Assembly: GCF_054482595.1 (NCBI RefSeq) | Contig: NZ_CM137008.1 | Reading direction: 5' to 3' (one strand) | Length of the DNA: 64,000 nt | Shown here: positions 1-56,050 of the stretch, one piece after another | How the letters are laid out: every line of letters begins with the position of its first letter | Numbering within the stretch: the first letter of the stretch is position 1 | Made by a program: the position numbers and the translations under genes | Notes under the pieces: model-generated | What the model saw: the letters and a program-made list of their open reading frames with translations, nothing else | What the model was told of the DNA's origin: nothing | Database searches by the model: none

Positions 1-431
1 AACTGGCTCGTAAAGAAGATATGCAACTGAGTGCTCATATTAACCCAGAGACATTTGACGTTGAGTTAATTGATGAGAAGGGATCTGTCATTAATCGTAA
101 GTTACTATCTGCCGGTGAAAAGCAGATTTATGCCATTGCTATTCTTGAGGCGCTAGCAAAAACTTCTGGTCGTGATTTGCCGGTGATTATTGATACGCCA
201 TTAGGACGTCTGGATTCACAACATCGGGATAAACTAATTAACCATTATTTCCCATTTGCCAGCCATCAAGTGGTGCTATTGTCTACCGATACGGAAGTGG
301 ATGAACGTTATTTTGTTGACCAATTACGTGATGATATTTCTCATGCTTACGAGATAGTATTTAACACGCATACTAAATCATCAGCGTTGAAGCCCGGTTA
401 TTTCTGGGAATTAACTAAGGAGGCTATCTGA
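1..431 (+). CDS. dndD: DNA phosphorothioation protein DndD, C-terminal part (gene starts upstream of window)
   Basis: Frame is open from position 1; translation contains SMC/ABC-type signature LSAGEKQ followed by D-loop-like IIDTPLGRLD, as remembered for DndD C-termini. Stop TGA at 429-431 overlaps the dndE ATG (TGATG). Confidence 0.75.
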   Translation, partial: LARKEDMQLSAHINPETFDVELIDEKGSVINRKLLSAGEKQIYAIAILEALAKTSGRDLPVIIDTPLGRLDSQHRDKLINHYFPFASHQVVLLSTDTEVDERYFVDQLRDDISHAYEIVFNTHTKSSALKPGYFWELTKEAI

Positions 432-787
432 TGCTCCCGAATCGAATGGTGCTGAATCGTCAGACTGAAGAGCAGCTTAAAAGATTGAAAGGGTATACAG
501 GGATCACACCTAATGTCGCTGCCCGATTGGCATTTTTCCGCTCGGTGGAGAGTGAGTTTCGCTATTCATCAGAACGGGATAATCGGAAACTAGATGGTTC
601 GCTGGTGTTGGATAAGATTACGTGGCTGGGGGAGACATTACAGACTACGGAATTGGTATTGAAGATGCTTTATCCGCAGTTAGCTCAGAAGGATATGGTT
701 AAAGCATGGGCTGCGCATGTGGAGGATGGGATTGCGGCGTTAAGGAATCATAAGAGTCTATTAAACTTTATTAAATCAATAGATTAA
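431..787 (+). CDS. dndE: DNA phosphorothioation protein DndE (118 aa)
   Basis: Small protein directly coupled to dndD; motif GITPNVAARLAFFRS resembles the DndE family; size and position are typical for dndE as last gene of dndBCDE. Confidence 0.7.
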   Translation: MLPNRMVLNRQTEEQLKRLKGYTGITPNVAARLAFFRSVESEFRYSSERDNRKLDGSLVLDKITWLGETLQTTELVLKMLYPQLAQKDMVKAWAAHVEDGIAALRNHKSLLNFIKSID

Positions 788-795
788 GAATTTTT

Positions 796-826
796 AGGCC
801 ATCCAAATTAACAATATGGATGGCCT
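796..826. terminator. Perfect 10-bp inverted repeat (aggccatcca / tggatggcct, 11-nt loop) between convergent dndE and DGQHR genes; possible bidirectional terminator or RNA-stabilising hairpin
   Basis: Inverted repeat read directly from sequence; no clean U-run on either side, so terminator function is uncertain. Confidence 0.35.
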
Positions 827-845
827 GAACAAAATTTAGTCAATT

Positions 846-2006
846 TTAAAAATCTGTTTTGACATTTTCGTTTAAATAATCATATATTTTTCGCTGACCC
901 ACAGTTGTTGATGTATACTCTGTATTTTTTGTAAACTCCTCAGGATTCACAGTTTTCAATGCAGAGCACAGCTTTTCAATATTTTCTTTGTTAATTTTAG
1001 GCATGTCCATCAATTTTTTACGTAGAAACTGAAATAATGCAGAAATACCGACAGATCTAACTAACACTGTGCCTTTCTCAATACATACATTAGCCCAAAA
1101 ATGATCTTTTATCGCTGAAAAATAAATTTTCAATATTTGCTCTATCGCCTTATCATTGCCTTTTATATAAAACCATCGCAATGGGCTTTTATCCTTGCTG
1201 TTTTTATTATCAAGCCTGCCCCTTCCTTTTTCTTTTTCATCCGAATCAATTGCATTGATGGTATATCTATCAGCACGAGGGTTTTTAGATATTAGTGATA
1301 ATACACCATCAATAAATACAGACGATGATATAGACCAGTCATTTTCAGTAATTTCATTCAATACTCTATTTTTTAATCGTCTGTAGAAAGGATATTCATC
1401 TGTTTTATTAAATTTCTCACTAAAATATACAGCAAGCAAATCAGGAGGCCAATACTCTCTGGATATATCATCAAGAGAGTATCCAAAGAGTCTATATGCT
1501 AAACTTTTAGGAACTTTTTGTTGGTTAAAATTAATTGTTGAAAATATAGTTGCTTGATTGGATGGTGGTAATGAGTTATAAATTGAACAAGGTAATTGAA
1601 TATCTTTATTCTTAGCATACTTAAATCCTAATAATCTGTGCTGTCCATCGATAATAGAACATAATCTTAGATTTATATTCGGTATTATTATCTTATATAA
1701 TCAATTCTCACTTTTTTTAAACTCCCATTTGTCATCTTCCTTTGCAGGTGTACCATCTTCATTATGATTGACAGAGAGTATGATTGAGTTTGGAAATGCA
1801 GCCTCATCGGAGTCTATGAATTTTGCTATGTCTAAGGCTCTTGGCATAGACTCTTTCCTCTGCACACCTGATATTTCCCCATCATCCATTTCCGCCTGAT
1901 TCACATAAATACATTTCAATAAATCTTCGGCAGACATAACCGTCTGAAAGAATTCGCCGTATGGTTGGGTGACCTTAATTGCATGGATCTCAATAGAATT
2001 AGACAT
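846..2006 (-). pseudogene. DndB-like DGQHR-domain protein interrupted by an in-frame TGA (codon 102, plus-strand 1701-1703); possibly pseudogene, readthrough gene or sequencing error
   Basis: Minus-strand frame is continuous from ATG at 2006 to stop at 846-848 except for one TGA; N-terminal part has DndB-like AIKVTQPYGEFFQTVM and GVQR motifs, and the region just after the stop reads CSIIDGQHRLLGF (DGQHR signature). Very AT-rich. Confidence 0.65.
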
Positions 2007-2525
2007 TTATAGCCCCTCACCTGGCTCATCATTAGAACTCATATTCCTTAATTCATCAGACACTAATGAATCTGGAGTTACAGGGATTTTAAAATCAGGC
2101 TTAACAACGGTAATGGAAAACCATAATATTATAGTTATAATAAGTGATGAAATTAACATGAAATTGACGTCATTTTTTAATCCAAAAAATAAAAAAACAA
2201 ATGATATGAACCATAAAAATATTGAACAAGATATTCTAACTTGTTTACGGTGCCTTTCAGATAAAGAAATAGGATTTTCGTTCTCGTCATCTCTGGATAA
2301 ACACTCCGCGGCTAATACGCCCAATGTGGTAATAATAAATGAAAAAATAGAAAAACCCAACTGCGTATTATCTTTTAAAAATAATGGGCCAATCCATATT
2401 CCGCAGGTTGATACAAATAATGTCACCAAAGATATAAAAATAAATTTTGGCTGAATAATTCTTGGATATAATCCTAAGATATCTTTCCACAAGTTCACCC
2501 AATGTATCATATCATTTCTCGACAT
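2007..2525 (-). CDS. Small hydrophobic protein with about 4 predicted transmembrane helices (172 aa), function unknown
   Basis: ORF with four long hydrophobic stretches; its TAA stop (2007-2009) directly abuts the ATG of the DGQHR gene (translational coupling); AGGG Shine-Dalgarno-like sequence upstream; 37 bp downstream of the dptH stop on the same strand. Confidence 0.5.
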   Translation of the reverse strand: MSRNDMIHWVNLWKDILGLYPRIIQPKFIFISLVTLFVSTCGIWIGPLFLKDNTQLGFSIFSFIITTLGVLAAECLSRDDENENPISLSERHRKQVRISCSIFLWFISFVFLFFGLKNDVNFMLISSLIITIILWFSITVVKPDFKIPVTPDSLVSDELRNMSSNDEPGEGL

Positions 2526-2562
2526 GCTTTTTACCCTAACCTTGTACTATCTACAAAAATAA

Positions 2563-5500
2563 TCAAAAAACAAGCTCCCAAAACGCTCTATCTCGCATCT
2601 TGCTAACCCGCTTATCCCCATCAACATACAGACTGAAATGTTTTTCAAGCTGCCGAATCTGCCCCATTAACGACTCCTGTTCGCCCTTATCATCCACGTT
2701 GAATACAGCCTTGATATCCGCATTTTTAATTTCGGACACACGATGAATAACCCAGGTTAGAATATATGAAGCGTAATTGTTCTCTCCAGTTTTGAAGTGG
2801 GTAATTTCCTGCGTTGACAGGATCGCTCCAACACCATATTCACGACCTTCCTTAAGGATCTTCCTCAGACTGGAAAAGTCCTGGCGCATAAAGTTATCTG
2901 CCTCATCCACCAGAATCATCTTGGTGAGCTGACGATAATCCCCCTGAATCACTGGCTTGCCGCGTTTTTGCATTTGTGCATAAAACAGATCCAGGGTTAG
3001 CGCAACCACCAGGTTTTGAATCTCTGATGAGTAGCCAGCCAATTCGATAACTGTGACACCATCCACCAGATCATACAGACTCGTCATTTTCTCTGGGTCT
3101 GTTTCAAATATCTGAAACCCAGCTAAGTTATAAAGCGCGGCGTACAATGAGTCTTCTTCTACTTTTTCCTGAGCCAGATATCGCTGCCACACATCTTCTA
3201 TGGTCGGTGCAACACGGTTCCAGGTTGAGCGATCATGAGGCACTATTCCTGCTAATTCATAGCACTCCATGATTAGCGTAACCAGTTTCATACGCTGTTT
3301 CACACCCAGGTTATAGGCTTTCCCCATTGTTTCAGAAAATGCGATTGCGGTATGTCTGGGTAACATGGGCATATCACCAAACAGTGACAAAGGGTTATAA
3401 GGTAGTAACGATAATTGATATTTCTTACCGCCAGTAGCCTTCAGAAAAGCCTCGTCCACATAGTCAGATTTATAATCAAAGATCAGTAAACCAATCGATT
3501 TTCCATCAACGTTACAGGATTGGTTACGCATTAATTGTGTCACCAGCGATTTGGTAAATTGCGTTTTCCCGGTCCCCATCGTACCGATGATGCCTGTGTT
3601 GGTATTCATAAACTTCGTGGTGTTGGTCGGTTCCCAGAATAACGGGGTTTGCCGTGTAGCGTCATGACCAAATAATACTTGTAAGGGTACAGTGCTGACC
3701 TCTGGTGTCGGCTTTGGAATATCAGGTCGTGTGTCTGGCGGTGTCGTTACCTGCACTCCCGATGCTGATGGAGATGGGTGCTCATCACTCTCTGGCTTCA
3801 GACGGTATTTATCTGGTACCCGGTAGCGTTCAGCCAATGGCAATTTACCTTCACGGGTAGTGATTAACGAGGATAGTAATGAATAAGGAATTTCGATCTG
3901 TAAGATATTCGCTGTCGTCTCTTTATAGGAGAGATCGAAGCAAGATCCGCTGTCTACATGTGCAACAACAAAGCCATTAGCATAGTCTTTTAACTCACCC
4001 AACTGATAGTCACCGGTCAACCACCATTCGCGGCGATCCAACAGGGGAGCCAGCTTATCACTGTCCAGCACACCGTACAGCTGAAGTTTCTCTACCTGCA
4101 TCAGCACCTGTCGAATAAAGAGCGCGCGATAAAGTTGCGATGCCAGTGTATGCGGCTCCAGAATATCCTGCTGTAAATAACGTTTAAGCTCAGCAGCCTG
4201 CTGGCCCGCATAGTTGTAATCTGGTCGAGCGCCGGTTTTGACTTCCAGCGGCAGTAAATAGAGACGGTTTTCTTTAAAACCAACAAAGAGCACATCATCA
4301 GAGATTGCGCCTTTACGGTACCCCTGTAGATTTCTTGATAAATCGCTTTCCTTCATCTTTAGCCCGACGTTACCAGATACGCGAATCATTTCGGCTACAG
4401 ATAGCGGTACCCAGCAGATATCAGACTCACTCAGCATGGACTGTACAAATTTATACGCGCCAATGATGCCATATTTCTCTTTGCGCTCTTTTTCACTGGA
4501 GCGCAACATCTTCAGCAACCACTCACCGTTAAAAGCATTAAATTCGGCAAGTAGATGCTGGCTATCAACGGCAGATTGCCCGGACTGGCTTTCGGTCTGG
4601 AGCAGGCGGAGGAATAGATCGACCTGCTTCGTTACCGTCACTGCATCGTAGCCTGCACAACTAGTGTACTGATCGGAATAGTGGATCAGCACAACATCTT
4701 TCTGGCTAGTAAAGAAGTCAAGAGTAACTTTAGGGTCAATAATGGTGGTCCAGAGTGCACTGTTGTAAGAATAATTGAGTAGCTGTTTAAAATTGCCGCT
4801 TACGGCCAATCCAATCCCTTGTCCGTGGTATTGACTGTTGCTCTGACGCGCTGGCTGCCACAGGCAGCCCACTAACCGGGCAAGTCGTAGAGCGCAGTAA
4901 GATTCAGTATCAACATTCCGCAGGCCAAACGCGGTAAAGTAAGCATCCCCCTGTGTTTCAGCTCCTTCTCCGGAAATCAGCCCATGACACAGTACACCGC
5001 TGGCAGCATCCTCAATGCGGATCTGGCGGCAATCCACCGGAGCTGTATTGGTGAAAAACGCCAAATGTGCATAGGCCAATTTGTCGCTTTCTGACGGCAG
5101 GACAAATTTGCTGAACGTTAACCGACTGCGTAACAGGTCAATCAGCATATCGGCCTCAGCTCGCCACGCACCGCGGTTCAGGTCAAGGTCGTTTTTAAGC
5201 TGTTCATAGCTGCCACTCTCGGCAAAGCGATCAAACATATTTGGCAGCAGGCGTTCATCGTAGCAATTTACATGCACCGAAATAGCATGCTCTTTTTCCT
5301 GCTTAAAATATTCCACTAACCCCAGAAACAGTTCTTTCGCTGTTCCCTGATTAATAGCATTAATAATCAATGCATTGTTTCCGGGACTCTGAAATAGCCG
5401 GGCGTAGGCTTCGGTAAATTCATTGAGCTTGTCTTTTACCAAACGTTTTACGTAATCGTGGCTCACCTGGCGCTGGGGAACGACATCGATCCAGAAGCGA

Positions 5501-7638
5501 TTTTCTTCCACCGGCTGCAACTGTGCGTATTCGTGTTCACTGTGGTAAACGAATGGCATCAAGCCGGACACCACCAGACGATCAAGCGTAATGGTCGGTA
5601 GTGTGGCAAATGACGCTGAGTCGTATTGTTCCTGCTCTGCGCAGATAGTTTGTACCAGTTGTAAATGGTAGGCCAACACTAGGGGATGCAACGGGGAGAG
5701 ACGTTCATGACTGTCGACATTACAAATACCCAGATGCAGCAGGCGCTTTTCCTGCGCTGTTAACGCTCTGCTCAACTCGATTTGTTGAAGCGCCTGTTCA
5801 AAGGTCGTCACTATATGGCTTACCAGCGCGCAGTATTCTGCTGACCACGATACTAGGCTAGGTAAAGTACCGCAGCGCTGGTAGTAGAGGAATAATTGGT
5901 CGTAGGCGTTATAGAGATCGGGGTGGATGGCAACGAGTTCATCCAGCGCAAACGCGCTATCGTCATCTCCTGTCCCCAAAAGACGTTGATCAACTAATGA
6001 GGCTTCCAGCGCCAGTAACTGCTGGCGAACACCGACAACCTTGTGTTCGGTATTATCAAGAATGATACGACCCTTCAATCGGTTCCAGGACGCATTCCCG
6101 TCTTCTTTGAACAGTTTATTGAAACGACTCTGGTCAAAAAGTAGCGGTAAGGTTAACCCTTCTTCGGCTCCCGGCCCTTCGATATTGAATGCCAGACAAG
6201 AATCACCTGAAACAAGCTTAAATTGGATCAGATCGCTTTGATTTGCCAGTGTTTCAAAATTCACCAATGCATAATGCTGGCAGTCAATATCACCATTTTC
6301 TTCATCCAGTATACAGACTTGGCTACCCGACTCAGCGATTCGTAGTTCGTTGTCTTCGCGTTGGAGTGTGATTTGTGGTTTACCTGGCTCGATACGGAAA
6401 CAATGCTGAATATCGTCTAGCCAGAATTGTCCTTGTCTGACCAGTAACAGGCGGAACTTGTACTCTTCGGCTGAATTATTGCGATTAGTCAGTTCGAGGC
6501 TAAAGAAGCAGGGATTCCCATCGAAAGGAACCGACGCCATAATACGGGAGCTTTTACCCCCTGCACGACTAATTCGCCAGAAACGCTCTTTTTTTAACTG
6601 ACGATGATGCGCAATTTTTATCTGGTTATCCTGAAGATCGTTGCCCTGAAAGCAAAACTCCAGCTCAGTTTGCGATTGTTCGGGTGGTACCTGTACCAGT
6701 AGGCTGATATCGCGCTTGCCTGCTTTACTTGCGCTTTTCGCCCGTTGCCAAATCACGCCATTTTCGACCGTGATATCATCCAGTACCAGTTTTTGTTCGC
6801 GGTTCTGTTCTTTTTCGTTTAGATAAACAGCGAAATCAAGCTCGCGCCAGTCGTCTTTATCATTGAAATGTTCCTGAATAAATTTGGCGCTGAATTCAGT
6901 TAATACGTTCTCCAGTTGCCCACTGTAGCGTTCAACGCTGTCCTCGATTTGACGAAATAACTTCCTGTTTTCATTCAGTCGGGTATGGAGCTGTTTCTGG
7001 CTAAAATTCAGTAGTTCATCATCTTTAAACAGCGATAGCTCGGAGAAATCCAGATTGCCGTCATCCAGCAGGCGATACAACGACGAGAAGCCAAATACGG
7101 TCGCACCTTCATCCAGTACCGTTGTTCGTTGATCCTTTAATAAGCAACGCGACAACTCTGAACGGTTGTTGTCCGTCGTGATCAACTTTTCCAATTCATG
7201 ACTGAAGGTTTCGGGGTGCCAGATAGCTCCCGGTGCCGCGACGTCTTTTGTGCTGTTAATCAGGGTGTCCAGCATGCTGTTATGAATAATCAGCAGTGCA
7301 GTTTTGGCAAACACCCCGCTGCGGCCAGCAACTTCATCGCGTAAATGGGATATGTAGTTTTCCGTGAATGCTGGCGCTGCGGCTCCGTGCAGCACCGGAA
7401 TAAGCTGAATACCATTACAGGAGAGACAGGCAAGGCGCTGCTCTGGCGCAATTTCCAGATGATTGTCACCTGCCAGGTCAACAAAAGCCTGCCAGAGTTG
7501 TAGAGCATTGTCAGGGTCAGGAGATTTAAACTGGTAACGCTCACCAGGTTGAATAATGCCACTAACCCATTCAATAAAGGTTTCCGCCAGATAGGTTTCA
7601 TACTGTTTTACGGACATACACGGCGTCTCCACTGTCAC
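2563..7638 (-). CDS. dptH: DptH/DndH-like large ATPase/helicase-type protein of the phosphorothioate-dependent restriction module (1691 aa)
   Basis: 5076-bp ORF with Walker A (GIIGTMGTGKTQF) and Walker B-like (ILVDEADNF) motifs; third gene of a three-gene operon adjacent to dndDE; gene sizes match what I recall for dptFGH of Salmonella/E. coli dnd islands. Start may be the downstream ATG at 7617. Confidence 0.75.
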   Translation of the reverse strand: MTVETPCMSVKQYETYLAETFIEWVSGIIQPGERYQFKSPDPDNALQLWQAFVDLAGDNHLEIAPEQRLACLSCNGIQLIPVLHGAAAPAFTENYISHLRDEVAGRSGVFAKTALLIIHNSMLDTLINSTKDVAAPGAIWHPETFSHELEKLITTDNNRSELSRCLLKDQRTTVLDEGATVFGFSSLYRLLDDGNLDFSELSLFKDDELLNFSQKQLHTRLNENRKLFRQIEDSVERYSGQLENVLTEFSAKFIQEHFNDKDDWRELDFAVYLNEKEQNREQKLVLDDITVENGVIWQRAKSASKAGKRDISLLVQVPPEQSQTELEFCFQGNDLQDNQIKIAHHRQLKKERFWRISRAGGKSSRIMASVPFDGNPCFFSLELTNRNNSAEEYKFRLLLVRQGQFWLDDIQHCFRIEPGKPQITLQREDNELRIAESGSQVCILDEENGDIDCQHYALVNFETLANQSDLIQFKLVSGDSCLAFNIEGPGAEEGLTLPLLFDQSRFNKLFKEDGNASWNRLKGRIILDNTEHKVVGVRQQLLALEASLVDQRLLGTGDDDSAFALDELVAIHPDLYNAYDQLFLYYQRCGTLPSLVSWSAEYCALVSHIVTTFEQALQQIELSRALTAQEKRLLHLGICNVDSHERLSPLHPLVLAYHLQLVQTICAEQEQYDSASFATLPTITLDRLVVSGLMPFVYHSEHEYAQLQPVEENRFWIDVVPQRQVSHDYVKRLVKDKLNEFTEAYARLFQSPGNNALIINAINQGTAKELFLGLVEYFKQEKEHAISVHVNCYDERLLPNMFDRFAESGSYEQLKNDLDLNRGAWRAEADMLIDLLRSRLTFSKFVLPSESDKLAYAHLAFFTNTAPVDCRQIRIEDAASGVLCHGLISGEGAETQGDAYFTAFGLRNVDTESYCALRLARLVGCLWQPARQSNSQYHGQGIGLAVSGNFKQLLNYSYNSALWTTIIDPKVTLDFFTSQKDVVLIHYSDQYTSCAGYDAVTVTKQVDLFLRLLQTESQSGQSAVDSQHLLAEFNAFNGEWLLKMLRSSEKERKEKYGIIGAYKFVQSMLSESDICWVPLSVAEMIRVSGNVGLKMKESDLSRNLQGYRKGAISDDVLFVGFKENRLYLLPLEVKTGARPDYNYAGQQAAELKRYLQQDILEPHTLASQLYRALFIRQVLMQVEKLQLYGVLDSDKLAPLLDRREWWLTGDYQLGELKDYANGFVVAHVDSGSCFDLSYKETTANILQIEIPYSLLSSLITTREGKLPLAERYRVPDKYRLKPESDEHPSPSASGVQVTTPPDTRPDIPKPTPEVSTVPLQVLFGHDATRQTPLFWEPTNTTKFMNTNTGIIGTMGTGKTQFTKSLVTQLMRNQSCNVDGKSIGLLIFDYKSDYVDEAFLKATGGKKYQLSLLPYNPLSLFGDMPMLPRHTAIAFSETMGKAYNLGVKQRMKLVTLIMECYELAGIVPHDRSTWNRVAPTIEDVWQRYLAQEKVEEDSLYAALYNLAGFQIFETDPEKMTSLYDLVDGVTVIELAGYSSEIQNLVVALTLDLFYAQMQKRGKPVIQGDYRQLTKMILVDEADNFMRQDFSSLRKILKEGREYGVGAILSTQEITHFKTGENNYASYILTWVIHRVSEIKNADIKAVFNVDDKGEQESLMGQIRQLEKHFSLYVDGDKRVSKMRDRAFWELVF

Positions 7639-8923
7639 TCATTCGCTCCACATTTCCCATACGTTCATAAAACGCTACCAGCGTTTGTGCCGACTGGTTA
7701 TCCAGATAAAATCCGCGCTGTTCAAAGCCGCGCAGCAACTCATGCAGGCGTAGTTTGTCATTTTTACCCACAGTGAGATTGGTCAGCAGCAGCAGACGAT
7801 CCTGATTCAGTACCAGTACTTTTCCCGCCCGACCACGTACCTGAATGAAATCGGTGCAGATCTGGGTTTCAAGCTCGTTGATGTATTTCCGGTTAACTGT
7901 CGCACGATCAGATTTCTTATCCTGAAACTGTTCAACAGCAACGGTTAATAATTGTTTAAAAGCTTCTTCCAGCGTAACGGCTTGCGTATACTTCGATGCC
8001 GAAAGCTCGCGTTTTTCGATAAACTCCTGCAAATAATTATTGAGATCTTGCAGTAATTGAGATGAGTTATCAGAAAAATTTAAGCAATCCTGATAGACCT
8101 GCCAGAGTGGACGCTTCTTATCTCCTTTTATTTGTAGAACTTCCAGCGCGGAGAGTATTGGGAAAAGTTTTTCACTTTGACGAGCGAACCACTTATAACC
8201 AAAGCGTTTTATTTGATCCCGTTCAGAACTGGCTTTTTCAGTGTCGAGAATAAAGAAAAGCGACTTACTTTGTGGCTCGCCGTCCTGCCAGTTGTCCAGA
8301 TTGAGCGCTAGCTGGGCACACCAGCTAAAGGCATATAAACGCAGAGTATTAGTCAGTTCTTGTAACAAATATTGAGGGTGTTCTGCCAAAAACGCCAGAT
8401 CAGACTGAAAACAAGTCACCAGATAGGGAAGGTAGGGTTGTTCTTCAGAGAATGGGCCTTTTCCCAATAACTTTATTTTTTCATTGAGCTTATTTAGCAT
8501 TTGCTGCTCAATGAAGTTCAGCTTATCCTGGATAGGATATTCCAAGCTGAAATCTCCCATTAGATTAGCAAACAGAGTGCCAAGGCGTTTATCGGCCATT
8601 GAAGCGCCACTTATTTTTTCGCCATCAAACTGAGCATGAAATAGTAAAAAAAGCGGAGATACACGAAAGATATCTTCACTGGAAAAATACATCCGTTCCA
8701 GTACAGTCCAGAATGCTGGTTCATCAAGCAATTCTTGCAAATGAGCCTTGCAATCATCGCGAAATTGACTGGGAGTATAGGCATCAATTTTACGCTTCAG
8801 GGCGTAACTAAGCACCAATCCGGTGACAAATTGCCAGTTAATATCATTGTTTTTGTTACGTATCGGCAGATAACTATCCAGTTGATTATTACCTACTTTT
8901 AACGTCGTTGCGATAGGGTACAT
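7598..8923 (-). CDS. dptG: DptG/DndG-like protein (441 aa)
   Basis: 1326-bp ORF between dptF and dptH on the same strand, 4-nt gap from dptF stop; size and context match dptG. Confidence 0.7.
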   Translation of the reverse strand: MYPIATTLKVGNNQLDSYLPIRNKNNDINWQFVTGLVLSYALKRKIDAYTPSQFRDDCKAHLQELLDEPAFWTVLERMYFSSEDIFRVSPLFLLFHAQFDGEKISGASMADKRLGTLFANLMGDFSLEYPIQDKLNFIEQQMLNKLNEKIKLLGKGPFSEEQPYLPYLVTCFQSDLAFLAEHPQYLLQELTNTLRLYAFSWCAQLALNLDNWQDGEPQSKSLFFILDTEKASSERDQIKRFGYKWFARQSEKLFPILSALEVLQIKGDKKRPLWQVYQDCLNFSDNSSQLLQDLNNYLQEFIEKRELSASKYTQAVTLEEAFKQLLTVAVEQFQDKKSDRATVNRKYINELETQICTDFIQVRGRAGKVLVLNQDRLLLLTNLTVGKNDKLRLHELLRGFEQRGFYLDNQSAQTLVAFYERMGNVERMSDSGDAVYVRKTV

Positions 8924-8927
8924 TCCA

Positions 8928-10577
8928 CTAACCCTCCATACCGCTAATGGTGATCATGTCGTCGTCCGCTTTAGCGCGATAAACTCGCCGCCCACCAGCA
9001 TAAAACTTGATTTCGCTGCTGGATTTGGCCTGTTCAGTAATCAAATCAACGATTTCGTCCAGTAGAACAATGGCATTTTTATCGTATTTATTGGGGCGAT
9101 AGCCATTGTTTAATTTGTTCAAAAGTTCAAATAAATTAAGTCCGATACGAACTGGTAACAGAGAGTTTTGCCCAACTTTTAAATGCACGTCGAAGCCAGT
9201 AGGGTGGGCCGTATTTTTATTGCGGATGGCCTCCCAGTCAGGTTTCAATTCGACTGGCGCGGTTATTTTTACCCCACCATATTCACCTAAAAAGAACTCT
9301 TCTTTTTGCATACTCAATTCCGGCGCTTTGCGGTTTGCATAGCGCTGAATACCAGCAATAAGTTCGGATGTATAAAACCGGTTCAGTGCTTTTTTCTGCT
9401 CTGAGTCAGCGATGTAATTTTTGTGCAGATGCCAGATTTCTGAATAATGCTCAAATAAAGATTCATTGAAGAATACGGAAAATTTCTGATGATAATTATT
9501 CCCCAGAGATTCATCCTGCAGCAACCAGAAGAGCCGAATTAATGAAGCCGCATCACCCGGATTAACGCACTGGCGATCAAATCTAATGTGTAATGGCGCG
9601 AGTGCAGCTAAAAAATCATCCAGTTCAGGGTCAACCAGGCCCAATTCGTAGCGCAAAATAAACTGATCGATTTCATAGGTGTGCAGCCTAGCAGGATCAA
9701 AATCAGAAACTTTTTTAATCAGGTCGTTTTCTGCCCCAGTGAAAAGATTATCAAATAAATACCCCGGCCCCATAAGCAAATGATGCAGAAAATCCAATAG
9801 AGTTCGGGTTGTCACAAACTGATCTTTAATCAGGCGGGCCTTAAAGAGCTGAGTGATGAGAACATCCTGAACACCCGGCAGACAAAGTAATTTATAGTTA
9901 GCAACTTCTTTCAGCTCAGGGTTAACGGTCTCATCATGTCGAAAAATAAACTGAAACAAATTACTATCATCATTACGGGTTAAATTATCCAGTAATGTTT
10001 TAATAAACGATGAATACTGTTTTTTTTCATTAAACTGGAATTTAGGGTAATGCTCAAAGTCAAAAAAAGAACAATGCCCACTGCGGTATGGGCGGCTTTC
10101 TTCCTGATCTGCTGACAAGAAAGAATCGATCGCAGTGCGGATCGCCAGATGGCATTCAGCACCTTCTCTGGCAAAATTGGCGAGCATCCCGGTATTGATG
10201 CCTATAAGCAAAGGAGATGAGTATTGGTGATGATTGCTAAATAAATCATTTAAAGCATCAATAGCTGATTGCCGGGGAGCAAAGCTGTGTGTTGCATCCA
10301 GATGAAAACTAAAGCGCTGCTGATAACGAGGGTTTGACTTACAACGGGTCAAAATTTCGGACTTTCCATCACCACTACTGCCACACAAAAAGATGATTTC
10401 ACCGGGCTTAGCAACATCCAGATAACGTTGCAGCTCAGTTTCAATTTCTTGTTTAACAAAGAGTTGTTCTTTTAACTGATCGAACTCATCCTTTTGACGA
10501 TGCGTTACCGTGGTTACGGAAAACGAAGATGACTTCGCAAGTACACCCAACGCTTTACGTAATGTGATTGCGCTCAT
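8928..10577 (-). CDS. dptF: DptF/DndF-like P-loop ATPase (549 aa)
   Basis: 1650-bp ORF with Walker A-like motif FLCGSSGDGKSEI; first gene of the operon, preceded by an AT-rich 5' region. Confidence 0.7.
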   Translation of the reverse strand: MSAITLRKALGVLAKSSSFSVTTVTHRQKDEFDQLKEQLFVKQEIETELQRYLDVAKPGEIIFLCGSSGDGKSEILTRCKSNPRYQQRFSFHLDATHSFAPRQSAIDALNDLFSNHHQYSSPLLIGINTGMLANFAREGAECHLAIRTAIDSFLSADQEESRPYRSGHCSFFDFEHYPKFQFNEKKQYSSFIKTLLDNLTRNDDSNLFQFIFRHDETVNPELKEVANYKLLCLPGVQDVLITQLFKARLIKDQFVTTRTLLDFLHHLLMGPGYLFDNLFTGAENDLIKKVSDFDPARLHTYEIDQFILRYELGLVDPELDDFLAALAPLHIRFDRQCVNPGDAASLIRLFWLLQDESLGNNYHQKFSVFFNESLFEHYSEIWHLHKNYIADSEQKKALNRFYTSELIAGIQRYANRKAPELSMQKEEFFLGEYGGVKITAPVELKPDWEAIRNKNTAHPTGFDVHLKVGQNSLLPVRIGLNLFELLNKLNNGYRPNKYDKNAIVLLDEIVDLITEQAKSSSEIKFYAGGRRVYRAKADDDMITISGMEG

Positions 10578-10794
10578 AACTTCATGTTCTCAAAAGTAGG
10601 ATTATACCTATTCTATAAAAGCTATCCGCTGATATCTATAGGCACTTTGAGACATTTATTACGGGCAATTTTAAAATTGTATCTTTTCCATCCGTACACA
10701 AAACACATCCAGAGATGGCGGGGAAAATCCATCTATCAACCAGTTCCACTTTGGAAATTGCTTGATTAGTAGTATCTTAATCAAACACATACGC

Positions 10795-10975
10795 TAAATA
10801 TTACCCCCGATTGATTTTCGCATAGTCAAACAGCGTAATCGATCTCTCCCTATTCGCATCCAGAAAATCAGCCCACCATACTGCAAATCAGCTCGCGCTC
10901 ATCCAGATGTTCTGCCTTATGGATATACGCCCCCTTACCGATGTGACTCATCTGACGTTCAGCCGCTTTATCTCA
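10795..10975 (-). pseudogene. Decayed 3' fragment of a P4-type integrase gene (remnant of a second int copy)
   Basis: About 180 bp with roughly 75-80 percent identity (by eye) to the 3' end of the intact integrase gene at about 13930-14110 (for example gcatccagaaaatc...ttatggatatacgc...ctcatctgacgttca shared); same orientation; 5' two-thirds of the gene absent. Confidence 0.6.
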
Positions 10976-11072
10976 TGTTGTTCTGGTCTCAATACTTCCA
11001 TGCCGTTGCAATTACCTCTTAAACCAGCCCTTACCATTTTTATGGGTACGATAAGAAAACTTTATCGGGCAC

Positions 11073-11103
11073 GATCGATTTTATCGATCGATTCGATCGA
11101 AAA
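11073..11103 (+). promoter_or_regulatory. Cluster of three GATC sites inside tandem tcgatcgat-like repeats, about 90-115 bp upstream of the outer-membrane protein gene
   Basis: GATC at 11073-11076, 11086-11089 and 11095-11098, each inside CGATCG; read directly from sequence. Regulatory role is hypothetical. Confidence 0.3.
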
Positions 11104-11189
11104 CATTCCTTTTACCTTATCTTTTTCATGGTCTTAGAATGAGCAACCCCATTTATCGTTCGGGGAAAGTGATAGCGGAGATGATTGAA

Positions 11190-11930
11190 ATGAATAAGGT
11201 TATTGCGGTTTCAGCGCTTGCCATGGCAGGCATGTTTTCGACCCAGGCTCTGGCTGATGAAAGCAAAACAGGCTTTTATGTGACCGGTAAAGCAGGTGCT
11301 TCTGTTATGTCACTTGCAGACCAGCGTTTCCTGTCGGGGGATGGAGAGGAAACATCAAAATATAAAGGCGGTGATGGCCATGATACGGTATTCAGTGGCG
11401 GTATCGCGGCCGGTTATGATTTTTACCCGCAGTTCAGTATTCCGGTTCGTACGGAACTGGAGTTTTACGCTCGTGGAAAAGCTGATTCGAAGTATAACGT
11501 AGATAAAGACAGCTGGTCAGGCGGTTACTGGCGTGATGACCTGAAGAATGAGGTGTCAGTCAACACACTGATGCTGAATGCGTACTATGACTTCCGGAAT
11601 GACAGTGCATTCACACCATGGGTATCTGCAGGGATTGGCTACGCCAGAATTCACCAGAAAACAACCGGTATCAGTACCTGGGATTATGGGTACGGAAGCA
11701 GTGGTCGCGAATCGTTGTCACGTTCAGGCTCTGCTGACAACTTCGCATGGAGCCTTGGCGCGGGTGTCCGCTATGACGTAACCCCGGATATCGCTCTGGA
11801 CCTCAGCTATCGCTATCTTGATGCAGGTGATAGCAGTGTGAGTTACAAGGACGAGTGGGGCGATAAATATAAGTCAGAAGTTGATGTTAAAAGTCATGAC
11901 ATCCTGCTTGGTGTGACTTATAACTTCTGA
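11190..11930 (+). CDS. Outer-membrane beta-barrel protein, Hek/Tia/Hra-like adhesin/invasin family suspected (about 246 aa precursor)
   Basis: Start chosen at internal ATG 11190 preceded by GGAG at -12; typical signal peptide MNKVIAVSALAMAGMFSTQALA then DESK; alternating aromatic/glycine-rich beta-strand pattern; C-terminal YNF with terminal Phe typical of OMP beta-barrels. Family name is from memory only. Confidence 0.65.
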   Translation: MNKVIAVSALAMAGMFSTQALADESKTGFYVTGKAGASVMSLADQRFLSGDGEETSKYKGGDGHDTVFSGGIAAGYDFYPQFSIPVRTELEFYARGKADSKYNVDKDSWSGGYWRDDLKNEVSVNTLMLNAYYDFRNDSAFTPWVSAGIGYARIHQKTTGISTWDYGYGSSGRESLSRSGSADNFAWSLGAGVRYDVTPDIALDLSYRYLDAGDSSVSYKDEWGDKYKSEVDVKSHDILLGVTYNF

Positions 11931-12103
11931 CGACACTGCTCCTGAACGATAATACGTATATTTAGCAATTAAGATAATTGCGTATCTTCTGCAATTAAAC
12001 AGAAATACCCTGCAGTCTATTACTGCAGGGTTATCTGTTTCACAGATAATTTCTGATTTTTATTATCCTGTTCTCTTCATCATAATGTTGTCGATATACT
12101 CCG

Positions 12104-13603
12104 ATGAATATCAGAAAACTGTTTTGTCCGGGAAACACACCCCGGATTTTATTGTTTTTATTCTTTTTTGTTGTTTCTGCAATAACCACAATTGCATGCG
12201 GATACACTGAGAAGAATGCCACAGGAAATGTGCTGCTTCTGTTTCTCCTTCTTCTCCTTGCACACAGAAATACCCTCACATCCATTACAGCGCTGTTATT
12301 TCTGTTCTGTTGTGCACTGTATGCGCCTGCGGGTATGACGTACGGTAAAATCAACAACAGTTTTATTGTCGCGTTGCTGCAGACCACGGCTGATGAGGCT
12401 GCAGAGTTTACCGGGATGATTCCTGTTTATCATTTTCTGGTCAGTGCCGCGATTCTGGTATTCATGGTGATTTTCTGGCGGACACACCACCGCGGTCACC
12501 GTAACTGGCTGGCACTGCTGCTATTCGTATTATGCTCTGTAAACAGCTGGCCGTTGCGGATGGTTAAAGGAACTGTTGTGGGGACAACTGACACATTGCG
12601 TGAAATGCAGCGTTATAAACAACTGAGTCAGCACGGGGCTGATAACTGGAAAATCCTGCCGGGTGTGCCGTTGTATGACACGATTGTTATCGTTACTGGT
12701 GAGAGTGTGCGCAGGGATTATATGTCGGTATATGGCTATCCCGTGCCAACCACGCCGTGGCTGAATACTGCTCCCGGTTTATTTATTGACGGCTATACAT
12801 CGACAGCAGCCAGTACCGTACCTTCCCTGAGCCGGACACTGATTTATGACTATGAGCAGAACCCTGACTCCGGCAACAACGTGGTGGCGCTGGCAGCAAA
12901 AGCAGGATACAGCACATGGTGGATATCCAATCAGGGAAAACTGGGAGAGCATGACACACGCATCTCTGTTATTGCTTCTGATGCGGAGCATACCGTTTTC
13001 CTCAAGAAAGGCAGCTTCGCTTCCCGTAAAACGGATGACATGTTGTTGTTACAGGAAACAGAACGTGCGCTGGCGGATAAATCCTCGCCGAAGGTGATTT
13101 TCCTGCACATGATTGGCTCTCATCCGAATCCGTGTGACCGACTTAACTCCTGGCCGAATTATTACCTGGAGCAGTATCCCCGAAAGATTGCCTGTTACCT
13201 CGCCAGCATCAGTAAACTGGATAACTTTCTCGGTCAGCTTGATGGTATCCTTCGCCGGCATTCCCGTCACTTTGCAATGCTTTACTTTTCTGACCATGGG
13301 CTGTCGGTCAGCGACAGTGCTAATCCTGTTCATCATGATGGTCATGTGCAGGGGGGCTACAGCGTTCCCCTGATTATTACCGCCAGTGACATCACGTCTC
13401 ATCAGTCCGTCAGCAGGAAAATCAGTGCCCGTAATTTCGCAGGCATTTTTCAGTGGCTGACCGGTATTCGTACCGAAAATATAACGCCATTCAATCCGCT
13501 GACAGACGAAGATAATGAACCCGTTATGGTTTTTAACGGAGAGAAAAATGTGCCGGCAGACAGTCTGAAACCGCAGCCACTTATTCTTCCGGACCACAGG
13601 TAA
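12104..13603 (+). CDS. Inner-membrane sulfatase-family / phosphoethanolamine transferase-like protein (YhbX/YjgX-like, 499 aa)
   Basis: N-terminal hydrophobic helices followed by a periplasmic domain with motifs IVTGESVRRDY, HMIGSHPNP and LYFSDHG, typical of the alkaline-phosphatase-superfamily PEA transferases; position next to the leuX integrase matches the K-12 yjgX locus. Confidence 0.6.
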   Translation: MNIRKLFCPGNTPRILLFLFFFVVSAITTIACGYTEKNATGNVLLLFLLLLLAHRNTLTSITALLFLFCCALYAPAGMTYGKINNSFIVALLQTTADEAAEFTGMIPVYHFLVSAAILVFMVIFWRTHHRGHRNWLALLLFVLCSVNSWPLRMVKGTVVGTTDTLREMQRYKQLSQHGADNWKILPGVPLYDTIVIVTGESVRRDYMSVYGYPVPTTPWLNTAPGLFIDGYTSTAASTVPSLSRTLIYDYEQNPDSGNNVVALAAKAGYSTWWISNQGKLGEHDTRISVIASDAEHTVFLKKGSFASRKTDDMLLLQETERALADKSSPKVIFLHMIGSHPNPCDRLNSWPNYYLEQYPRKIACYLASISKLDNFLGQLDGILRRHSRHFAMLYFSDHGLSVSDSANPVHHDGHVQGGYSVPLIITASDITSHQSVSRKISARNFAGIFQWLTGIRTENITPFNPLTDEDNEPVMVFNGEKNVPADSLKPQPLILPDHR

Positions 13604-13926
13604 TCATATATGGCAAACTGTAATACAGTCTCTTGTACTGAAAAGGATTCTGTATAGAATAGAACCTGTATTCATATCAGCACAAGGGACCACCAAATCC
13701 CGGCAACATTCCTTACGTCAGTTATCCCGCATCACCCTGTGGGTGCGGGATTTTTTATGATGTTTCTTTTTATTGAATATATATAAATAACGAATAACTG
13801 CGGATTCTGATAATCCACCTGCAGGGAGCAATCCGGTAAACATTTAATACATCAGTTAATATCGTTTTGCCTTTTTAACAAAGAAAATATTCATGGAGTA
13901 AGTTCCCGGGCATTTGCCCGGGATGA

Positions 13927-15192
13927 TTACTGTTTTAATGGATTATTAATCTTTGCATATTCAAATGGACTGATAAATTTTTCTCTGTTTGCATCCAGAA
14001 AATCGGCCCACCATTGTAGCATCAAGCGGCGTTCTTCCAGATGCTCTGCTTTATGGATATACGCGGCCCTCACTGAATTTCGCTCCATGTGGCTCATCTG
14101 ACGTTCAACAGCATCACGAGACCACAAACCTGATTCGACCAATGAACTACAGGCCATTGTTCGAAAGCCATGACCACAAACCTCTACTTTTGTATCATAC
14201 CCCATGACCCGTAACGCACTATTTACCGTATTCTCACTCATGGGTTTGTGCGAATCGTGATCACCAATAAATATCAAGTCATGGGCCCCACAAAACTGTT
14301 TTATCTGCTTTAAAATTGCAAGAGCTTGCGTTGAAAGAGGCACTAGATGCGTTGTACGCATTTTTGAGCCTCTATGGGAATGTTTCACTCCAGGAATAGG
14401 CTCCCGCTCCGGTGGGATAGTCCATATAGACGCTTCGAAATCGATCTCTGACCAACGAGCAAAACGCAGCTCACTGGACCGAATAAAGATCAGCAAAGAG
14501 AGTTCTGTCGCCCATCGGGTTAGCGGCCTACCAGTATAGCTATCTATTTTTGTAAGCAACTCAGGGATGCGCTTTAATTCAAGCGCGGGACGATGTTGTC
14601 GATTACAGGAAGCAACCGCCCCAGCCATCTCTTGTGCCGGGTTATAATCAATTAACCCACTTTGCACTGCATAGCGCATGATGGCTGTAGTGCGCTGCTG
14701 AAGACGAGCGGCCACTTCAAGACGTCCAGACATTTCTACGGCCTTAATGGGTGCTAATAAATCTCGAGTTTTTAACTCAGCGATATTACGTTCACCAAGC
14801 GCTGCAAAAAGATTATCTTCCAGACTTTTTAGCACACGATGGGCGTGATCTTCAGACCACTTTTTATTGGTGCCATGCCACTCAATCGCGACTTCTTTAA
14901 AGGTTCGTGCTTTACTCTGTTCAACCTTATCATTTTTCTTTTTGTCTCCCGGATCGACGCCATTCGCAAGCAGCTTACGCGCCTCGTCACGACGTACTCT
15001 GGCATCCGCTAGTGTGATTTCAGGATAAACCCCAAGTGCCAGCATTTTTTGCTTTCCCTCATAACGGTACTGCAAACGCCAGTACTTAGAACCATTTGGA
15101 TGGACAAGCAGATGCATACCGCCACCATCAGTCAGCTTATATTGCTTATCCGTTGGCTTGGCTGCTCTGACTTTGATATCTGTTAATGCCAT
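13927..15192 (-). CDS. intB: P4-type tyrosine recombinase/integrase (IntB-like, 421 aa)
   Basis: Translation MALTDIKVRAAKPTDKQYKLTDGGGMHLLVHPNGSKYWRLQYRY... is a typical P4-family integrase N-terminus, with C-terminal catalytic region motifs (HGFR, Y near the C-terminus); start is adjacent to the 3' end of tRNA-Leu. Confidence 0.85.
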   Translation of the reverse strand: MALTDIKVRAAKPTDKQYKLTDGGGMHLLVHPNGSKYWRLQYRYEGKQKMLALGVYPEITLADARVRRDEARKLLANGVDPGDKKKNDKVEQSKARTFKEVAIEWHGTNKKWSEDHAHRVLKSLEDNLFAALGERNIAELKTRDLLAPIKAVEMSGRLEVAARLQQRTTAIMRYAVQSGLIDYNPAQEMAGAVASCNRQHRPALELKRIPELLTKIDSYTGRPLTRWATELSLLIFIRSSELRFARWSEIDFEASIWTIPPEREPIPGVKHSHRGSKMRTTHLVPLSTQALAILKQIKQFCGAHDLIFIGDHDSHKPMSENTVNSALRVMGYDTKVEVCGHGFRTMACSSLVESGLWSRDAVERQMSHMERNSVRAAYIHKAEHLEERRLMLQWWADFLDANREKFISPFEYAKINNPLKQ

Positions 15193-15378: not shown

Positions 15379-15463
15379 TGGTGCCGAAGGCCGGACTCGA
15401 ACCGGCACGTATTTCTACGGTTGATTTTGAATCAACTGCGTCTACCGATTTCGCCACTTCGGC
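15379..15463 (-). tRNA. leuX: tRNA-Leu (anticodon CAA), leuX
   Basis: Minus-strand 85-nt sequence GCCGAAGTGGCGAAATCGGTAGACGCAGTTGATTCAAAATCAACCGTAGAAATACGTGCCGGTTCGAGTCCGGCCTTCGGCACCA, recognised as leuX with encoded CCA; P4-type integrase immediately 3'. Confidence 0.9.
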
Positions 15464-20916: not shown

Positions 20917-22431
<1,515 letters not shown>

Positions 22432-22439
22432 TTGCGTCA

Positions 22440-22735
<296 letters not shown>

Positions 22736-49684: not shown

Positions 49685-49800
49685 TTTGCCGGATGCGGTG
49701 CACCTGTAGGCCTGATAAGACGCATCAAGCGTCGCATCAGGCACTATGCTCAAATGCCGGATGCGGCGTGAACGCCTTATCCGGCCTACGCACACTATAT
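49685..49800. repeat. REP elements downstream of yjgA
   Basis: gccggatgcggtgcacctgtaggcctgataagacgcatcaagcgtcgcatcaggc and gccggatgcggcgtgaacgccttatccggcctac units. Confidence 0.5.
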
Positions 49801-55944: not shown

Positions 55945-56050
55945 AGTAGGCATGATAAGACGCGGTAAGCGTCGCATCAGGCTTCAGTGCACCATCGCCG
56001 GATGCGGCGCGAGCGCCTTATCCGGCCTACGAATCGGCATCAGGCATAGC
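55945..56050. repeat. REP elements between ytfR and ytfQ
   Basis: gcgtcgcatcaggc and gccggatgcggcgcgagcgccttatccggcctac units. Confidence 0.5.

Follow-up and report, generated by a model that had tools for sequence, protein, structure and literature searches.

A conserved candidate sigma-70 promoter in the AT-rich leader of the dptFGH restriction operon of the Escherichia coli leuX island

Introduction

The DptFGH complex damages unmodified DNA, and hosts of Dnd systems modify only a fraction of their GAAC/GTTC sites. The amount of the restriction complex therefore matters both for self-toxicity and for phage defence, and the locus raises the question of what drives transcription of dptFGH and whether the DNA in front of the operon silences it or couples it to modification. 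The E. coli leuX island that carries dpt has already been described (PMC4373003, PMC6408774), and no mapped promoter or transcription start site of dptF or dndF was found in the searchable literature. In this work, we analyzed the non-coding spacer upstream of dptF (the leader) within a window of 64 kb, which is the whole stretch of DNA under study (contig NZ_CM137008.1), and compared it with the corresponding DNA of other dptF loci. The original prediction, made from the sequence alone, had described this spacer as AT-rich and ORF-free, as the probable site of the dptFGH promoter, and as a possible H-NS-bound region.

Results

The setting of the window is the leuX island of E. coli, and the features around the leader are listed in Table 1. 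A 901-bp query around the leader was 100% identical in E. coli W2-5 and several other strains, and 99.9% identical in 55989 and the O157:H7 NADC 6564/86-24 lineage. The names dptF, dptG, and dptH, as first assigned, match NCBIfam equivalogs, and the start codon of dptF is backed by protein alignment and by the conserved context of its ATG. The 217-bp ORF-free gap that had been predicted upstream of this codon is real, but its proposed end at position 10794 is 6 bp short; because the TAA stop codon of the integrase remnant lies at 10803-10801, the true end of the gap is 10800. The integrase next to dptF is reduced to its last 166 bp, which share 76-89% identity with the 3′ end of the paralogous intact integrase. 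A leuX attachment-site repeat was sought near the leader and none was found. Beyond dptH, three minus-strand genes (846-2525) have a GC content of only 30-39%, and the stretch of the island that is richest in AT is made up of two of these genes. They are named by PGAP as a DGQHR-domain protein, a short "DndB", and an AgrB-family protein; the adjoining DGQHR and DndB calls resemble a single split DndB-like gene.

Table 1. Features of the dptF leader and its surroundings, with positions in the 64-kb window.
Feature	Position	Strand	Remarks
dptH	2563-7638	minus	NCBIfam equivalog DptH, 1206 bits
dptG	7598-8923	minus	NCBIfam equivalog DptG, 309 bits
dptF	8928-10577	minus	NCBIfam equivalog DptF, 454 bits; first gene of the dptFGH operon
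Leader (complete non-coding spacer)	10578-10800	minus	223 bp, dptF ATG to stop of integrase remnant
Predicted 5′ UTR	10578-10603	minus	~26 nt; putative start near 10603 (A), 7 nt past the -10
Perfect TATAAT	10606-10601	minus	Allele-specific, 4 nt downstream of the conserved -10; possible second -10, poor -35
Predicted -10 hexamer, TAGAAT	10615-10610	minus	Consensus scan; within conserved octamer TATAGAAT (10617-10610)
Predicted -35 hexamer, TAGATA	10638-10633	minus	Consensus scan; 4/6 to TTGACA
A/T tracts ATTTATTA and AATTTTAAAATT	10654-10678		15-40 bp upstream of the -35
Decayed hairpin	10735-10766	minus	~35 nt past the integrase stop; 11-13-bp stem in relatives
Integrase pseudogene, P4-type	10801-10966	minus	C-terminal remnant; PGAP "missing N-terminus" in identical W2-5 record; co-directional with dptF
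Outer-membrane protein gene (Tia/Hek-like; tia in some strains)	11190-11930	plus	PGAP, W2-5 record
Phosphoethanolamine transferase gene	12104-13603	plus	PGAP, W2-5 record
Intact integrase	13927-15192	minus	PGAP, W2-5 record; leuX next
tRNA-Leu(CAA), leuX	15379-15463	minus	

The AT-richness of the leader was borne out by a GC content of 35.5% for 10578-10794 and 34.5% for 10578-10800, vs. 51.5% in the backbone of the chromosome, 45.3% in dptFGH, and 43.6% in positions 1-15192, the portion of the window that belongs to the island. Equally AT-rich windows of 217 bp make up 6.4% of all such windows in the 64 kb and 12.6% of the island windows. In AT content, the leader is on a par with the remaining intergenic gaps of the island (34.7-39.8% GC), and eight 200-bp stretches of the island exceed it in AT, most of which cluster at 740-2567, downstream of dptH. 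Its AT-richness is real, yet ordinary for intergenic DNA of the island. Enrichment of the phosphorothioation motif GAAC/GTTC was considered and rejected: the two sites in the leader (10586-10589 and 10743-10746) reflect the density expected by chance, 1 per 136 bp, and the window as a whole contains 470 sites vs. 489 expected.

The 223 bp accompany dptF in ~180 of 5426 complete E. coli genomes. In genomes without dpt, homology to the window starts exactly at 10800, at the integrase stop, and extends into the gene for the outer-membrane protein. In Photorhabdus, Mixta, Enterobacter, Brenneria, Budvicia, and Pectobacterium, dptF is directly preceded by an integrase gene of this type, full-length and co-directional, with its stop codon 140-445 bp before the dptF ATG. 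This arrangement in six genera identifies the leader, on comparative grounds, as the ancestral integrase-dptF spacer of a mobile integrase-dptFGH-dnd island.

A consensus scan reported TAGATA and TAGAAT, separated by 17 bp and located 32 nt upstream of the dptF ATG, as the sole minus-strand promoter candidate in the gap. The scan alone is not significant, given three promoter-like sites in 1.1 kb vs. 2.9 expected by chance, and it is conservation that bears the promoter argument. To this end, 29 dptF loci were taken from a collection of species-representative genomes, and the 100 nt upstream of the ATG were compared in 27 leaders, 23 of them from taxa other than E. coli and the rest from E. 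coli variants. The DptF proteins of these loci share 55-100% identity with that of the window. The octamer TATAnnAT was present exactly once in 27/27 leaders, 30-32 nt before the ATG and with six of its eight positions invariant throughout, and the equivalents of the -10 hexamer were TAGAAT, TAAAAT, TACAAT, TAATAT, or TAAGAT. By simulation, a 100-nt sequence of 65% AT contains the octamer at some position with a probability of ~0.1. Because several of them are close relatives, the 27 leaders are not independent samples; with this relatedness allowed for, the fixed position of the octamer still lies far beyond chance.

Upstream of the octamer, a T-A/G-G-A-G-A/T block was found with a spacer of 17 bp in 24 leaders and 18 bp in the other three, and the homologous blocks score 3-4 out of 6 against TTGACA in all but one of the 27. 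The majority bases of its consensus, T-A-G-A-G-A-T, occur in 25, 19, 23, 21, 19, 19, and 25 leaders, respectively, and a conserved A (23/27) lies two positions past the block. Beyond the block, the DNA is unrelated in most taxa. The majority base has a mean frequency of 0.94 in the octamer and 0.78 in the -35 hexamer, compared to 0.61 in the spacer between them and 0.49 in the 25 nt further upstream. A -10 element with A2 and T6, preceded at 17 or 18 bp by a -35 element with the weak match that is seen in many natural promoters, and both more conserved than their flanks, has the characteristics of a sigma-70 promoter. The original claim that the leader holds the dptFGH promoter thus gained support from a -35/-10 pair that is conserved in position and in sequence in every leader compared. 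Downstream of this pair, the sequence GAGA-C-AT…GTTATG around the dptF start is conserved at ≥80%, and the window has a weak Shine-Dalgarno (SD)-like GAGAA at 10591-10587.

Several other elements of the dptF-proximal DNA deserve mention. The perfect TATAAT of the window is not conserved, since relatives carry GTAAT, GCATT, or GAATT at its position; in the window allele, it might add a start or shift it by ~9 nt. An extended -10 (TGn) was rejected, as the TG of relatives is one position out of register and is absent from the window. On the plus strand, a promoter-like match (GAGACA-17-TAAAAT, 10649-10677) faces the integrase remnant, away from dptF. Relatives have TTGACA at this site with a spacer that is too long, and the match may be a divergent promoter or a spurious antisense one. 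Finally, a mini-ORF of three codons (ATG AAG TTA TGA, 10574-10585, minus strand) has a stop codon that shares the sequence ATGA with the dptF start. Of the 27 leaders, 18, spanning many genera, contain this mini-ORF, and single base changes have removed it from the others; it may provide translational coupling or be a by-product of the conserved ribosome-binding sequence.

The core of the leader (-75 to -1 relative to dptF) is 81-93% identical between lineages, compared to 58-60% for third codon positions of dptF. E. coli strains provide a natural deletion series of the leader, which keeps 224 bp in ET490 (an integrase C-terminal remnant and IS5 upstream), 220 bp in SE11 (an integrase N-terminal remnant and tRNA-Leu), 189 bp in CFSAN061770 (unrelated DNA, then sodC), 73 bp in A37 (IS3 and IS30 remnants), and 70 bp in 33E (helix-turn-helix genes). 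In A37 and 33E, the leader is therefore reduced to the ~70 bp adjoining dptF. In 33E (locus L006, 3277-4193), three small helix-turn-helix genes replace the distal leader and are followed by an AbiEi/AbiEii pair; these genes could be regulators or just part of a neighbouring defence module. A plasmid collection searched with DptF yielded, beyond one identical E. coli record, distant matches (22-51% identity) that were of no use for footprinting.

The distal leader (10653-10800) is carried by E. coli, Enterobacter, Lelliottia, one Brenneria, and in part by Serratia microhaemolytica. In the comparisons made (loci L002, L003, L008, L010, and L030), it is 76-82% identical to the window. Because this identity exceeds that of dptF third codon positions (58-60%), the distal leader appears to be under some constraint, more than a plain spacer would show. 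Bacterial intergenic DNA is often under some constraint. The distal leader is missing or unrelated in other dptFGH loci that look functional, including A37, 33E, and those of most other genera, and hence is not essential to the operon.

Two features stand out within the distal leader. The hairpin at 10735-10766 is broken at two pairs in the window by G-G and A-C mismatches, and two of its pairs show compensatory changes in relatives. It was rejected as a rho-independent terminator, as it is followed by GAUGGAUUUG or GAUAGAUGGAUUUU rather than a U-tract and is not called by a terminator scan. The hairpin may have served the integrase transcript and have been decaying since the integrase was lost. 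The A/T tracts are kept within the lineage that carries the distal leader and are absent from A37, 33E, and most other genera; they could act as an UP-like element or bind nucleoid proteins.

No convincing ORF had been predicted in the leader, and this description held, as the candidates are unconserved and lack codon-position bias. A 61-aa ORF on the plus (antisense) strand (10584-10769) was rejected because its truncated counterparts in SE11 and Lelliottia measure just 29 and 26 aa, respectively, and CFSAN061770 lacks it. Five relatives keep a 33-aa sense ORF open, which is missing from SE11 and CFSAN061770 and frame-shifted in the window; with variable sites distributed 8/9/8 over codon positions 1/2/3, this ORF was discarded. 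A 39-aa sense ORF was among the candidates rejected on truncation or frame-shift in relatives and a flat codon-position pattern. The two longest ORFs (61 and 76 aa) had no match in NCBIfam. Rfam returned nothing at the gathering threshold for the leader, and nothing in 10400-11300 even at E ≤ 1, and folding z-scores were only -1.5 to -1.9. Elsewhere in the window, Rfam matched Ysr276 (181 bits), a Mg2+ riboswitch (126 bits), and four naRNA4/REP-type elements, with coordinates 21478-21672, 22506-22676, 39417-39532, 49709-49786, and 55949-56027; all are in the chromosomal backbone and unrelated to the leader.

We also looked for other sources of dptF transcription. The 5′ part of the integrase is missing from the remnant, and the genes carried by the next 3 kb are on the plus strand. 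Between the outer-membrane protein and phosphoethanolamine transferase genes lies a terminator-like hairpin (12007-12031) with a 10-bp stem and T-rich tails on both strands, which scores as a terminator in both directions. Given the integrase remnant without a 5′ end, the neighbours on the opposite strand, and this hairpin, the window offers no plausible same-strand source of transcription upstream of dptF. In the ancestral arrangement, some read-through from the integrase could contribute, because that gene is co-directional with dptF.

With regard to silencing, the H-NS nucleation motif TCGATAAATT had no match inside 10578-10800 with up to two mismatches. In the surrounding DNA (10400-11300), the sole match with one mismatch is at 11078-11087, within a TCGA-rich overlapping palindrome, TCGATTTTATCGATCGATTCGATCGA (11075-11100). 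The palindrome lies ~90 bp in front of the start that PGAP assigns to the outer-membrane protein gene, which it may help to regulate. With regard to modification, the DndB box TACG-N10-CGTA had no match anywhere in the 64-kb window. Moreover, dndCDE and dptFGH are convergent in the island and therefore share no control region, and a Salmonella dndB mutant had unchanged levels of the DndFGHI proteins (PMC4507180). In the sequences compared, we saw no sign that the leader itself couples restriction to modification.

Discussion

In the current analysis, the leader emerged as a probable site of the operon's own sigma-70 promoter, contained in the ~75 bp that adjoin dptF. According to the model we propose, the dptF-proximal part (10578-10652) carries the promoter, TAGATA and TAGAAT with a 17-bp spacer, and transcription would start near 10603 to give a short 5′ UTR with a weak ribosome-binding site. 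The non-consensus -35 and the weak SD would result in modest expression of the restriction complex. Since no sign of regulation was seen, we take dptFGH expression to be constitutive. The distal ~150 bp (10653-10800) would represent a leftover 3′ flank of the integrase that may modulate the promoter. A self-contained promoter is in line with published work on Salmonella enterica serovar Cerro 87 and E. coli NADC 6564. In Cerro 87, activity was observed for a lacZ fusion to the native PdndFGH (PMC12345140), the only homologue for which reporter activity was found in the literature, and cloning of the Cerro 87 cluster made E. coli DH5alpha restrict DNA (PMC2978375). Similarly, NADC 6564 (O157:H7) gave fewer transformants with unmodified pUC19 than EDL933, a comparison for which the authors note that a dptFGH deletion control is missing (PMC6408774).

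Other explanations of the leader can be weighed against a local promoter. One of them, binding of H-NS (with StpA or Hha) to the AT-rich leader, is compatible with such a promoter; repression of dptFGH until an anti-silencer or stress intervenes would then be what mainly determines expression. In E. coli, many horizontally acquired loci are silenced by H-NS, among them the cas operon of K-12. The leader has 65% AT vs. 48.5% in the backbone, its A/T tracts lie just upstream of the -35, and H-NS could bind here because the whole island is AT-richer than the backbone. However, the leader has no nucleation motif, its AT content is no higher than that of other island gaps and lower than that of the genes beyond dptH, and the A/T tracts are absent from many dptF leaders. 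The restriction reported for laboratory cultures of NADC 6564, which has a 99.9% identical locus, would also argue against strong silencing. Neither ChIP nor mutant data for dpt-positive strains, nor any other report of H-NS at dptF, were found in the literature searched. Nothing in the sequence data examined points specifically to H-NS at the leader, and strong silencing looks unlikely, as does a major role of H-NS in setting dptFGH expression. A role further removed from transcriptional control, as the coding DNA of a small protein or the source of a small or cis-acting RNA, is barely credible. The 33-aa ORF that is open in five relatives, the high identity of the distal leader relative to synonymous sites, and the two compensatory pairs of the hairpin could be read in its favour. 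Nonetheless, the variable sites of that ORF are spread evenly over the codon positions and the ORF is disrupted in the window and absent from two E. coli variants, the 61-aa ORF is cut short in relatives, known RNA families are absent, the folding z-scores are low in magnitude, and the distal leader is missing from many loci.

Read-through is a further alternative, whereby dptFGH would be transcribed mainly from upstream, i.e., from the ancestral integrase promoter or, in the window, from a distant one, and the conserved proximal block would serve translation or mRNA stability. The co-directional, full-length integrase upstream of dptF in six genera fits this scheme, as does the lack of a U-tract after the hairpin past the integrase stop, which is not a canonical terminator. 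Yet the window retains a 166-bp 3′ fragment of the integrase without a promoter, followed by 3 kb of plus-strand genes and a bidirectional terminator-like hairpin. Moreover, dptFGH is still intact in A37, 33E, and CFSAN061770, which have IS elements, helix-turn-helix genes, or sodC upstream, and the conserved elements show the sequence and spacing of -35 and -10 hexamers. We therefore regard dominant read-through as highly improbable. Slightly more room is left for an operator, in which the T(A/G)GAGAT-A block, alone or with a TATAGA repeat, would bind a regulator that couples restriction to modification or to phage infection, although this too is very unlikely. The block departs from the consensus in a specific and conserved way (T 25/27, G 23/27, T 25/27, A 23/27), with no drift toward TTGACA, and 33E has three helix-turn-helix genes directly upstream of its minimal leader. 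On the other hand, no regulator gene is consistently linked to the block, the DNA beyond it differs from taxon to taxon without any relationship, the Photorhabdus/Pectobacterium group lacks the TATAGA direct repeat, and the fixed 17-bp spacing to the -10 is a requirement of RNA polymerase itself; the absence of a DndB box and the unchanged DndFGHI levels without DndB likewise speak against it. The distal conservation, the specific non-consensus -35 block, and the mini-ORF in 18/27 leaders together suggest one more reading, namely that the leader is a control module in its own right, by which a DNA-binding factor, a nucleoid protein, or translational coupling would set or gate how much restriction complex is made. 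We consider this idea about as improbable as the operator. If true, it would be relevant to the question of how Dnd systems cope with a host genome that is modified only in part.

The preferred interpretation, a local sigma-70 promoter close to dptF, makes the leader an ordinary and expected promoter region, in front of a known operon in a described island (PMC4373003, PMC6408774). The predicted position of the promoter and the minimal conserved core of 75 bp provide a concrete target for reporter and mutational work. In addition, the restriction operon shares no control region with the modification operon, which is regulated by DndB.

The leader was also compared with known systems. The H-NS-silenced cas operon of K-12 is likewise a defence operon in an acquired island that is AT-richer than the backbone, with an AT-rich region upstream. 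In contrast to an operon of that type, the dptF leader has no nucleation motif, has an AT content that is average for its island, and belongs to a system for which restriction is reported in culture. Type II restriction-modification systems with C proteins face the same problem of keeping restriction in step with modification; unlike in those systems, no controller gene lies between the integrase remnant and dptF. Within the island, the partner of the dptFGH promoter in this defence system is the DndB-repressed dndBCDE promoter, which has two DndB-bound TACG-N10-CGTA boxes (PMC4507180), whereas the window has none. The closest counterpart is PdndFGH of Cerro 87, which drives an operon of the same family as dptFGH of the window; neither the limits of the fused fragment nor a start site were found in the available text of PMC12345140. 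In S. enterica subsp. diarizonae (locus L026), used as a stand-in for Cerro 87, the DNA upstream of the -35 is unrelated to the distal leader of the window, but TGGAGA and TAGAAT are found with a spacer of 17 bp, 32 nt before the ATG, followed by a 5′ UTR almost identical to that of the window.
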